Below, in pieces: positions 78 through 1,692 of a DNA stretch of 1,692 nucleotides. Both the position numbers and the translations under genes were made by a program. The number at the start of each line of letters is the position of its first letter. The first letter of the stretch is position 1. The stretch is from assembly GCF_003334815.1 (NCBI RefSeq), contig NZ_QOWO01000097.1. One strand, 5' to 3'. The notes beneath the pieces are model-generated. The model saw only the letters and a list, made by a program, of their open reading frames with translations. It was not told the origin of the DNA and ran no database searches. The DNA is from Escherichia coli (GTDB lineage: Bacteria > Pseudomonadota > Gammaproteobacteria > Enterobacterales > Enterobacteriaceae).

Positions 78-467
78 GCGCCACTGATGCAGTCACTGTA
101 TGACTGGATACAGACTCAGATGAAAACACTGTCGCGTCACTCGGATACGGCAAAAGCGTTCGCATACCTGCTGAAACAGTGGGAGGCCCTGAACGTGTAC
201 TGCAGTAATGGCTGGGTGGAAATCGACAACAACATCGCAGAGAACGCCTTACGGGGTGTGGCCGTGGGCCGGAAAAACTGGCTGTTCGCAGGTTCCGACA
301 GCGGTGGCGAACATGCGGCGGTGTTGTACTCGCTGATCGGCACATGCCGTCTGAACAATGTGGAGCCAGAAAAATGGCTGCGCTACGTCATTGAACATAT
401 CCAGGACTGGCCGGCAAACCGGGTACGCGATCTGTTGCCCTGGAAAGTTGATCTGAGCTCTCAGTAA
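78..467 (+). pseudogene. IS66-family transposase (TnpC-like), 3' fragment of about 129 codons, 5'-truncated at the IS629 junction
   Basis: Translation ...[84 protein letters not shown] carries the hallmark C-terminal motifs of IS66-family transposases ([28 protein letters not shown]). The frame stays open leftward to the IS629 end at 77/78, so the gene has lost its 5' part. TAA stop at 465-467. The Met at 87 used by the ORF track is internal, not a real start. Confidence 0.85.
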
Positions 468-469
468 AT

Positions 470-497
470 ATCAATACGGTTCTGGTGAGCCGCTTAC
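470..497 (+). mobile_element. Probable right terminal inverted repeat of the IS66-family element
   Basis: Sequence ...GGTGAGCCGCTTAC ends at 497, about 30 bp after the transposase stop. IS66-family termini are 5'-GTAAGCG...; on this strand the right end should read ...CGCTTAC-3'. The inner boundary of the repeat is not determinable without the left end. Confidence 0.55.
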
Positions 498-592
498 GCT
501 GAAATTTACACCAGATAAAAAACATACAGAAACAATCCTGTTATGTAAAATCCGGAAAAAATGTCAGAAATGTGATCAGAGTTGTGTTTTAC

Positions 593-749
593 GGAGGGGA
601 GTGCACTGCGCACGGACTAATCGGAACCTATCGGCTGAGCGATATCGATCCGGAAGCGTATCTGCCTCATATACTGAGAGTTTTGCCGGAATGGCCTTCC
701 AACCTGTTGATGAACTACCTCCATGGAACGTAGTGCTCACCAATAAATA
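593..749 (+). pseudogene. Second IS66-family transposase 3' relic, frameshifted
   Basis: One frame gives GGECTAHGLIGTYRLSDIDPEAYLPHILRVLPEWPSN, paralleling [39 protein letters not shown] in the first fragment. After about position 703 the homology continues only in the +1 frame (PVDELPPWNVVLTNK*, TAA at 747-749), paralleling [15 protein letters not shown]. This implies a 1-bp deletion. No clean ...CGCTTAC terminus follows. Confidence 0.6.
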
Positions 750-791: not shown

Positions 792-1319
792 TTAATCCTT
801 TTTGTTGAGTGTCACTGGACCATAGACCATAAAAACACAAGTTGAACCAGATACTCCCCTATAACCTCCCTGTCCATCGCCGAGATAACAGGCAAGAGCA
901 GTAAATTCCCAGGCATCATCCATAGACGCAGCAATTTTGCGTGTGGTTAGTGTTTCTTTGCCATATTGCTCACCAAAGTCGTGCACGCGCCGGGCATATT
1001 CTCCAAGTGACTCGCTGACTGACGGATGGTCCCACCCCCATAACCAGGTGCTGTCTTCAGTATCGTAAGTGCCAACCACTTGAACAGGTGCTGTGACCAT
1101 GATCTCTTTTTCATCATTGGTGAAGGTGATTGTACCTGTATTAAGATCAACATCCCACGCAGCAGTATCAAGTCCCCACATTTCTATAGCGGCTTGTGTG
1201 AGTAACTGCATTTCGTTATTCGCTCGTGCAATTGTGAGATCTGGCTCTGAAAGAATTGCTGTGTTAGCACTGGAATCTTTATTCTTTCTGCCAAAAAGCT
1301 TCTTGAATAAATTAGTCAT
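792..1319 (-). CDS. Hypothetical protein, 175 aa, family not recognised; predicted soluble
   Basis: Uninterrupted minus-strand ORF. ATG at 1319..1317 is preceded by GGGAGAG with about 5-7 nt spacing. TAA stop at 794..792. The ORF track's 192-aa version begins at an upstream TTG (1370..1368) with no Shine-Dalgarno, so the ATG start is preferred. Protein: MTNLFKKLFGRKNKDSS...WDVDLNTGTITFTNDEKEIMVTAPVQVVGTYDTEDSTWLWGWDHPSV...DDAWEFTALACYLGDGQGGYRGVSGSTCVFMVYGPVTLNKKD. No long hydrophobic segment (no transmembrane helix or signal peptide evident). Confidence 0.75.
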   Translation of the reverse strand: MTNLFKKLFGRKNKDSSANTAILSEPDLTIARANNEMQLLTQAAIEMWGLDTAAWDVDLNTGTITFTNDEKEIMVTAPVQVVGTYDTEDSTWLWGWDHPSVSESLGEYARRVHDFGEQYGKETLTTRKIAASMDDAWEFTALACYLGDGQGGYRGVSGSTCVFMVYGPVTLNKKD

Positions 1320-1331: not shown

Positions 1332-1397
1332 GTTTTCTGCAAACACTTTGGCTGAATTATTAACGTTCAAATTTTGTCAGACATGTGTATACCCTAA

Positions 1398-1414
1398 CCT
1401 GACATCAGGCCTGA
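1398..1414. promoter_or_regulatory. Nested dyad symmetry upstream of the 175-aa gene; candidate operator or promoter-associated site
   Basis: CCTGA(1398-1402)-CA-TCAGG(1405-1409)-CCTGA(1410-1414). TCAGGCCTGA at 1405-1414 is a perfect 10-bp palindrome. Lies about 80-95 nt upstream of the ATG in an AT-rich region. A -35-like TTGAAC (minus strand, 1370..1365) and a -10-like AATAAT are nearby but not at canonical spacing. Confidence 0.3.
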
Positions 1415-1618
1415 TAATGAAAAACTATCAGAATAAAATCGTCATGAGTATTTATTGAGACAAGTAATTAAAGGTCATAGATTCATTTATGACATATTCA
1501 GGCGTGATAGCGGCATCGTGGTAGTGACTCAGTCCTTTAAACCCGCAATATAAAACGAAAAAACAGACCGTTTTTCAGAAGATTAGCGCATTTATTGAGA
1601 AGTTTAAAGGCGTGGGAG

Positions 1619-1692
1619 TGAACCGCCCCGGGAATCCTGGAGACTAAACTTCCTGAGAAAGAGGTAAACAGGATGACTAAAAATACTCGTTT
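1619..1692 (+). mobile_element. IS3-family (IS629/IS1203-like) left terminus: terminal inverted repeat plus leader and start of orfA; element extends rightward out of the window
   Basis: TGAACCGCCCCGGGAATCCTGGAGACTAAACTTCCTGAGAAAGAGGTAAACAGGATGACTAAAAATACTCGTTT. Exact reverse complement of window positions 4-77. Confidence 0.8.
1673..1692 (+). CDS. IS3-family transposase OrfA, 5' partial (M-T-K-N-T-R...), continues beyond the window
   Basis: ATG at 1673-1675, 54 nt inside the IS terminus, preceded by GAGG. Same codons as the left-hand copy. Confidence 0.7.

Follow-up and report, generated by a model that had tools for sequence, protein, structure and literature searches.

The locus raises the question of what lies upstream of a gene for a 175-residue protein in a 1,692-nt stretch of Escherichia coli DNA (the window). 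An initial annotation had seen nested palindromes there and suggested that they are bound by a dimeric regulator of this gene. All motifs of that annotation could be recovered by a script search of the window (Table 1), and two further features were found, i.e. GTATAC at 1387–1392 and a larger dyad with arms TGTCAG (1375–1380) and CTGACA (1399–1404). Comparison with other sequences makes it very probable that positions 1375–1494 are a relic res of a Tn3-family transposon of the Tn21 subgroup, lying beside a former passenger gene that encodes a DUF6882 protein. The element type is already known, and no new mechanism is implied. The value of the identification lies mainly in annotation, as the segment is without annotated feature in all records examined and could naively be taken for an operator of unusual type that precedes an 'orphan' gene.

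The window is a mosaic of IS ends, IS66 fragments, the DUF6882 gene, the res segment and an hsdR-like fragment. In the IS3-family element whose ends border the window, orfA starts with MTKNTRF, which looks IS629/IS1203-like. The whole window was found in no complete E. coli genome of the collection, the best matches covering only 78–1618, so that its composite-transposon-like arrangement seems rare or strain-specific. Within it, a module of 925 bp (601–1525), comprising an IS66 fragment, the DUF6882 gene and the res relic, occurs as a fixed unit with at least 99% identity, and adjoins cdiA/cdiB and VENN/adhesin fragments on E. coli chromosomes. The IS66-like fragment at 572–740 sits directly downstream of the DUF6882 stop codon and is separate from the remnant at 78–497, while the hsdR fragment occupies the stretch from the res relic to the end of the IS3-family element. 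An Rfam search gave no match at E-values up to 1. A degraded 3' end of a cdiA-CT/toxin gene was considered for positions 1320–1525, since the module occurs in CDI-like arrays on some chromosomes; this candidate was rejected because stops fill all six reading frames and the res homology accounts for the segment.

Table 1. Features of the 1,692-nt window
Feature	Position	Strand	Description	Basis or remark
Inverted repeat	4–84 and 1612–1692		81 nt; two inward-facing ends of a multi-copy IS3-family element	96% complementary
IS66/ISCro1 transposase gene, 3' end	78–497		ISCro1-type tnpC	terminal ...CGCTTAC at 497
Second IS66-like fragment	572–740		frameshifted C-terminal transposase piece	annotated 'transposase domain-containing protein'
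DUF6882 gene	792–1319	-	175 aa; RefSeq WP_000182867.1	Pfam PF21813, E 1.2e-33
Candidate DUF6882 promoter (weak)	1356–1384	-	-35 ATGTCT (1384–1379), 17-nt spacer, -10 AATAAT (1361–1356)	
Putative res site I	1375–1404		TGTCAG-N18-CTGACA, 30 bp, dyad centre 1389.5	arms complementary 6/6
CAGACAT motif	1378–1384			
ACATGT palindrome	1381–1386			
Segment homologous to res region of Tn3-family (Tn21-subgroup) transposons	1389–1501	+	83–88% identity	11 plasmid copies
Central AT of site I, putative crossover point	1389–1390			left boundary of homology with plasmid res
CCTGA/TCAGG dyad	1398–1402 / 1405–1409			
CTGACAT motif	1399–1405			
10-bp palindrome	1405–1414		TCAGGCCTGA	extends to 12-bp palindrome ATCAGGCCTGAT, 1404–1415
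I–II spacer	1405–1425		contains TCAGGCCTGA	leading (A/G)TCAGG mirrors site I right arm back-to-back
Putative res site II (degenerate)	1426–1460		35 bp, centre 1443; consensus TGTCAG...TTGACA, window TATCAG...TTGAGA	dyad scoring
Putative tnpR promoter relic	1455–1483	+	TTGAGA-17-TAGATT; -35 in site II right arm, -10 in site III left arm	9/12
Putative res site III	1473–1494		centre 1483.5; plasmids GGTCAT...CTGACA, window GGTCAT...ATGACA	dyad scoring
hsdR 3'-end fragment (type I restriction)	1526–1617		85–93% identity to HsdR genes	>1,300 E. coli genomes

The identity of the segment follows from its relatives outside E. coli chromosomes. When positions 1260–1525 were used as query in a sensitive search of the plasmid collection, the region from about 1372 or 1390 to 1501 matched, besides the E. 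coli module itself, 30 plasmids at 82–88% identity; these come from Yersinia, Serratia, Citrobacter, Klebsiella, Enterobacter, Pectobacteriaceae, Brenneria and E. coli (eight genera counted). The DUF6882 gene is absent from these ~30 plasmids and the match itself lies under no annotated feature. In the plasmids, the matched stretch makes up the ~115 bp that immediately precede a serine resolvase gene (tnpR), with a gene for a Tn3-family transposase beyond it. Eleven of the plasmid loci were retrieved, and their alignment with the window is free of gaps. In seven of them a resolvase gene of 561 bp is intact and begins 13 bp past the match, followed by an annotated Tn3-family transposase gene in five of these seven; in the other four loci the tnpR start codon and first codons are still visible in the alignment. 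All 11 copies continue with GGAG-N-ATGAAAGG, the start of tnpR. The product of the 561-bp gene matches the Pfam domains Resolvase (E 2.7e-36) and HTH_7 (E 1.4e-12), the resolvase linked to this window-type res is 78% identical to Tn21-type TnpR, and the linked transposase scores 769 bits against the NCBIfam model transpos_Tn3 (cutoff 500).

The homology has sharp boundaries on both sides. Identity between the window and the plasmids is 24–39% at 1330–1388, rises to 83–88% at 1389–1501 and falls to 23–28% past 1501, and the BLAST matches start at window positions 1386–1390 in the 29 full-length diverged plasmid hits. On the right, the homology stops just before the ribosome-binding site of tnpR, and both this site and the start codon are missing from the window. 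The region is also collinear with the native Tn21-type res upstream of tnpR, and what is conserved between the window-type family and Tn21 is concentrated in GTCAG, ATACCCTAACCTGA, GTCAG, TTTATTGACA, AAGGTCATAGA and CTGACA, so that it falls on the subsite arms and the core of site I. In the Tn21 subgroup res occupies just this place, immediately ahead of collinear tnpR and tnpA genes, and site III is nearest to tnpR (PMC7157771). A near-repeat of 12 nt was also noted, with TCAGGCCTGATA at 1405–1416 and TCAGGCGTGATA at 1498–1509, the second copy lying where the homology to plasmid res ends; it may be due to chance or mark the deletion by which tnpR disappeared.

Three dyads could be recognized in the 120 bp from 1375 to 1494. 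The half-sites of site I are inverted around AT, and positions 1389–1399 (ATACCCTAACC) are identical to the central AT and right half of the 20-bp Tn21 core GGTTGAGGC-AT-ACCCTAACC, which has been used experimentally (PMC4587366 Table 1). The arms of site II are invariant in the 11 plasmid copies and conserved in Tn21 res, AAGGTCATAGA and CTGACA of site III are common to the window-type family and Tn21, and in all resolvase-linked copies site III is the one nearest to tnpR. The centres of sites I and II are 53.5 bp apart, i.e. about five helical turns, which is close to the ~53 bp of gamma-delta. The 53.5-bp distance and the span of 120 bp with three dyad subsites agree with the general rule for res, by which sites I and II are spaced by integral helical turns (PMC12217951). 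The boundaries of sites II and III were drawn from symmetry and from conservation across two independent res families rather than from footprints. Plasmid locus L031 was discarded as an independent third family: its right half is identical to that of Tn21, and hence the cross-family conservation comes from two families. For site II, an alternative dyad in the consensus (TGTCAG-N-CTGACT, 1426–1449) was discarded, since the copies vary in its right arm. The promoter-like site that runs from site II into site III has a homologue in a resolvase-linked copy, where it reads TTGACA-17-TAGATT (10/12).

At the start of the I–II spacer, GTCAG (1404–1408) is kept in 11 of 11 plasmid copies and in Tn21 res. 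The half-site-like motif TCAGG (1405–1409) has the form CCTGACGTCAGG in the majority of copies and CCTGATGTCAGA in Tn21. A fourth half-site-like motif, YGTCAG (CCTGAC|GTCAGG), can be discerned at 1403–1409 and at the homologous positions of loci L012–L022 and L030. It is conserved in both the window-type family and Tn21, whose I–II spacers are otherwise unrelated. No inverted partner was found for it at a dimer-like distance. That resolvase makes a fourth contact here, so far undescribed for res of the Tn21 subgroup, is a conceivable but unlikely reading.

The left boundary of the homology coincides with the centre of site I, and the same break is seen among the plasmids themselves: the median identity of plasmid pairs is 34% to the left of AT versus 89% to the right of it. 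Their left flanks carry different genes (metal ATPase, class 1 integrons, NmrA, EVE, DUF6530, GyrI-like, MFS and others). In 8 of 10 distinct and mutually unrelated left flanks a TGTC/CGTC-type arm is present at the offset of TGTCAG in the window, the recurring arm being YGTCAR. Copies from C. freundii, C. pasteurii and one K. pneumoniae combine a Tn21 left half with a right half of the window-type family, and hybrid site I sequences are present in Cfre, Cpas, Kpn_AR152 and L031. Recombination takes place at the central AT/TA of site I, and homology between elements that breaks there is a signature of exchange (PMC7157771). As the homology of the window breaks exactly at AT, the half of site I on the DUF6882 side was probably joined to the rest by resolvase-mediated exchange between two transposons. 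Resistance plasmids (L013, L019, L022 and L031) carry a left half of Tn21 type or other origin joined at AT to the right half of another family, and some hybrid copies adjoin class 1 integrons with blaVIM-1 or aac(6')-Ib-cr; these hybrid sites are natural examples of res-mediated module exchange.

The gene abuts site I and is transcribed away from res. Its description as an orphan was mistaken, since its product belongs to Pfam family DUF6882, has 377 homologues and is annotated in RefSeq. The homologues include many Enterobacterales proteins with 65–83% identity. No hit was obtained with NCBIfam or PADLOC, and the PDB offered no informative solved structure. The DNA around seven graded homologues was retrieved, and the gene neighbourhood proved to be different for each. 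Elsewhere, DUF6882 homologues neighbour SMI1_KNR4, DUF6707, DKNYY and DUF6387 genes; together with the CDI setting these neighbours hint at an immunity-protein-like role.

It had been reasoned that a genuine operator should be conserved upstream of homologues. At six loci with ~74–79% protein identity the upstream DNA is unrelated, and the dyad is absent upstream of DUF6882 in L005–L011. Upstream DNA that can be aligned to the window was found only in L004, an enterobacterial chromosome (83% protein identity). There the right arm of site I and ACATGT are lost and the third arm of the palindromic array has become TTAAT; on the gene strand TCAGGCCTGA reads TCGGGCCTGA. These changes are one-sided and destroy the arms, so that no operator dyad is kept upstream of orthologues by compensated changes. 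The copies of 1320–1525 within E. coli and in metagenomes are all at least 99% identical, and thereby uninformative on conservation. In L004 the DUF6882 gene and its res relic (2244–3750, corresponding to about 755–1500 of the window) lie between yhbP-like and yhbQ-like (GIY-YIG) genes, and no terminal repeats or IS were found near this ~750-bp unit.

There is no tnpR, tnpA or resolvase ORF in the window and no Tn3-type terminal repeat around the DUF6882 unit. The L004 locus likewise contains no tnpR, no tnpA and no Tn3-type 38-bp terminal repeat, so that in both cases the transposon origin is read from homology. With neither a cognate resolvase gene at site III nor a transposase gene and 38-bp repeats, the segment is to be regarded as a res relic and not as part of a functional transposon. 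An intact element with DUF6882, res, tnpR and tnpA was found neither in the plasmids nor in 100,044 species genomes nor in JGI metagenomes. A tblastn search of the plasmids with DUF6882 gave only the module of E. coli/E. fergusonii and distant Streptomyces genes, and a search for the leader pattern gave nothing in the 100,044 species genomes and only copies with at least 99% identity in the metagenomes.

Signs of decay can be seen in the accessory sites, where the GTC core that a functional res needs is no longer conserved in all arms (TATCAG, TTGAGA and ATGACA in the window). The changes include G1427A (TGTCAG to TATCAG), C1459G (TTGACA to TTGAGA, which also alters the -35 of tnpR) and C1489A (right arm of site III). 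Of the 76–78 columns that are invariant in the 11 plasmids, the window differs at 8, these three changes among them, compared with 0–4 in a leave-one-out comparison, an excess that could partly reflect distance and not relaxed selection, since the window is the most diverged sequence of the set. L004 differs at 11 invariant columns and shares only one derived base with the window; between the two, the subsites are 70–77% identical and the leader and spacer 86–87%. Taken together, this is suggestive of independent decay after tnpR was lost. Site I is still a perfect 6/6 dyad, and residual binding of resolvase is thus possible.

The palindromes that first drew attention must be judged against this background. 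CAGACAT, ACATGT and CTGACAT lie inside site I, and CCTGA at 1398–1402 is its right arm, whereas TCAGGCCTGA falls outside site I, in the I–II spacer. Could the symmetry be no more than chance palindromes in AT-rich intergenic DNA, without biological meaning? Perfect 10-bp palindromes are common: the window has two, the other being at 198 inside the transposase gene, against a mean of 1.59 in dinucleotide shuffles, and at least one occurs in 81% of the shuffles, so that TCAGGCCTGA alone is not significant. Chance does not explain, on the other hand, why ~30 plasmids have the segment with 83–88% identity and always at the same place with respect to tnpR, or why the TGTCAG/CTGACA arms either are invariant or turn up again in flanks that are unrelated; it is ruled out for the region taken as a whole, and as an account of the locus it is barely credible. 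It fits only the symmetry of TCAGGCCTGA, which by its look is most likely incidental. The third arm (CCTGA, 1410–1414) reads CCAGA, CCCGA, TCAGA or CATGA in 4 of the 11 resolvase-linked copies, without compensation, and ATGCC in Tn21; since it is unconserved, the 10-bp palindrome is best seen as incidental and the wider TGTCAG-N18-CTGACA as the dyad predicted to bind protein. The same variation weighs against the initial proposal of an operator in which nested palindromes are bound by a dedicated dimeric transcription factor controlling the 175-aa gene. That proposal had in its favour the alternating 5-mer arms upstream of the gene, the missing canonical leftward promoter and the rarity of the three-arm pattern: a 10-bp palindrome with a third arm at most 11 nt away was seen in 2.2% of cases when the whole window was shuffled and in 0.75% when the intergenic segment was, in a test that was picked post hoc, once the pattern had been seen. 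However, similarity is lacking upstream of the gene at six homologue loci and the arms are broken one-sidedly in L004, the same sequence occurs in ~30 plasmids with tnpR and without DUF6882, and in no context does a regulator gene lie adjacent. A dedicated operator is therefore very improbable. What stands of the proposal is that the alternating arms resemble half-sites of a dimeric protein, namely the serine resolvase TnpR; what does not is their assignment to the 175-aa gene, the element being in all likelihood the res of a tnpR that was formerly on the other side, on the plus strand, and is now gone.

Another possibility is that the res relic is still in use, either as promoter/operator of DUF6882 or as a target for recombination or for res-hunter elements, with co-resident Tn21-type resolvases binding site I in trans and thereby repressing the gene or recombining the locus. 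As the initial annotation had remarked, there is no sigma70-like site (at least 9/12) on the minus strand here, and those on the plus strand are at 1411–1439 and 1455–1483. A relaxed scan gave one leftward candidate of 8/12, below the 9/12 threshold, and whatever promoter drives DUF6882 would overlap the left half of site I, as this best candidate does. Site I has perfect 6/6 arms and a core half identical to that of Tn21, and Tn21-type elements are common, with 2,725 plasmid records that match site I together with a Tn21-like left flank. The E. mori copy has a divergent passenger gene whose start is only ~17 bp away from site I and whose promoter must therefore lie within res, and control by resolvase of passenger genes beside site I has been raised as an open possibility (PMC7157771). 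These points have to be set against the mutation of both site II arms at invariant GTC positions, the essential role of accessory sites in recombination (PMC12217951), the weakness of the promoter candidate, whose -10 reads AATTAT in L004 and whose -35 is not kept there, and the destruction of the right arm of site I in L004 next to an intact gene, from which it follows that the gene does not need the dyad. Overall, continued use of the relic is unlikely. The narrower idea that the relic has been kept as the control region of DUF6882, with site I overlapping the -35, is somewhat less likely still; if true, co-resident Tn21-type resolvases acting in trans would tie the expression of DUF6882, a widely scattered passenger gene, to transposon load.

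The relic res is thus preferred, and the observations on which it is built are the extent and limits of the homology, the arrangement of the dyads, the occurrence beside tnpR/tnpA in other replicons, the hybrid junction at AT and the lack of conservation upstream of DUF6882 homologues. In the ancestral element, dimers of the serine resolvase TnpR would have bound the three dyad subsites I–III, two copies of res in a cointegrate would have formed a synapse, and strand exchange would have occurred at the central AT of site I (1389–1390). Occupation of sites II and III would at the same time have repressed the overlapping tnpR promoter; repression by resolvase of promoters within res is well established in the Tn3 literature (summarised in PMC7157771). 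DUF6882 would have been a passenger gene just outside site I, its module having been joined to the window-type res family by an exchange at AT. Both tnpR and tnpA would have been lost afterwards, leaving a site that now appears to be decaying, with both arms of site II and the -35 of tnpR mutated. As the accessory sites are required, the present copy is presumably inactive for recombination. The identification as a res relic accounts for the palindromes, the plus-strand promoter-like site and the sharp homology boundaries at 1389 and 1501, and it also explains why, in pathogenic E. coli, a DUF6882 gene moves between IS elements, plasmids and chromosomal islands as one small unit. It would add another case of a passenger gene captured beside res site I through an exchange mediated by resolvase; the same route has been described before for toxin-antitoxin modules.

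The closest known system is the res of Tn21, which was footprinted by Rogowsky, Halford and Schmitt in 1985 (as cited in PMC12217951). The two are collinear over ~125 bp with one gap, are identical in AT and the right core half ATACCCTAACC, and share GTCAG/CTGAC arms at three subsites and a tnpR promoter of the form TTGACA-17-TAGA(T/G)T. They differ in the I–II spacer and the interior of site II, which are unrelated (GCCTGATAATGAAAAACT here, ATGCCATGTGTAAATTGC in Tn21); moreover, unlike Tn21, the window is without tnpR and tnpA, the left half of its site I stems from another element, and its site II arms and -35 are mutated. With the res of Tn3 and gamma-delta (Tn1000) the window has in common the three dyad subsites, the AT crossover in site I, the position of site III nearest to tnpR and the embedded promoters that are repressed by resolvase (PMC7157771, PMC12217951). 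The half-sites of Tn3 are different, its core being CGAAATATT-AT-AAATTATCG, and tnpA and tnpR diverge from res in Tn3, whereas in the window-type family tnpR and tnpA are collinear and the passenger gene is on the other side. IS101 and TIME244, non-autonomous Tn3 derivatives (PMC13367494), resemble the window in having a Tn21-type res-like sequence without a resolvase gene of their own, but they are bounded by Tn3-type terminal inverted repeats; such repeats are not detectable in the window or in L004, which therefore contain a relic and not a miniature transposable element. The nearest parallel for the DUF6882 side is provided by the passenger genes at site I described by Lima-Mendez et al. 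2020 (PMC7157771). Those passengers are toxin-antitoxin pairs, where a DUF6882 gene is found here and the transposition module has since been lost; in both cases a small gene directly flanks site I on its outer side, with transcription running away from tnpR, and, as in the module exchange described there (PMC7157771), homology between elements breaks at the central dinucleotide of site I.
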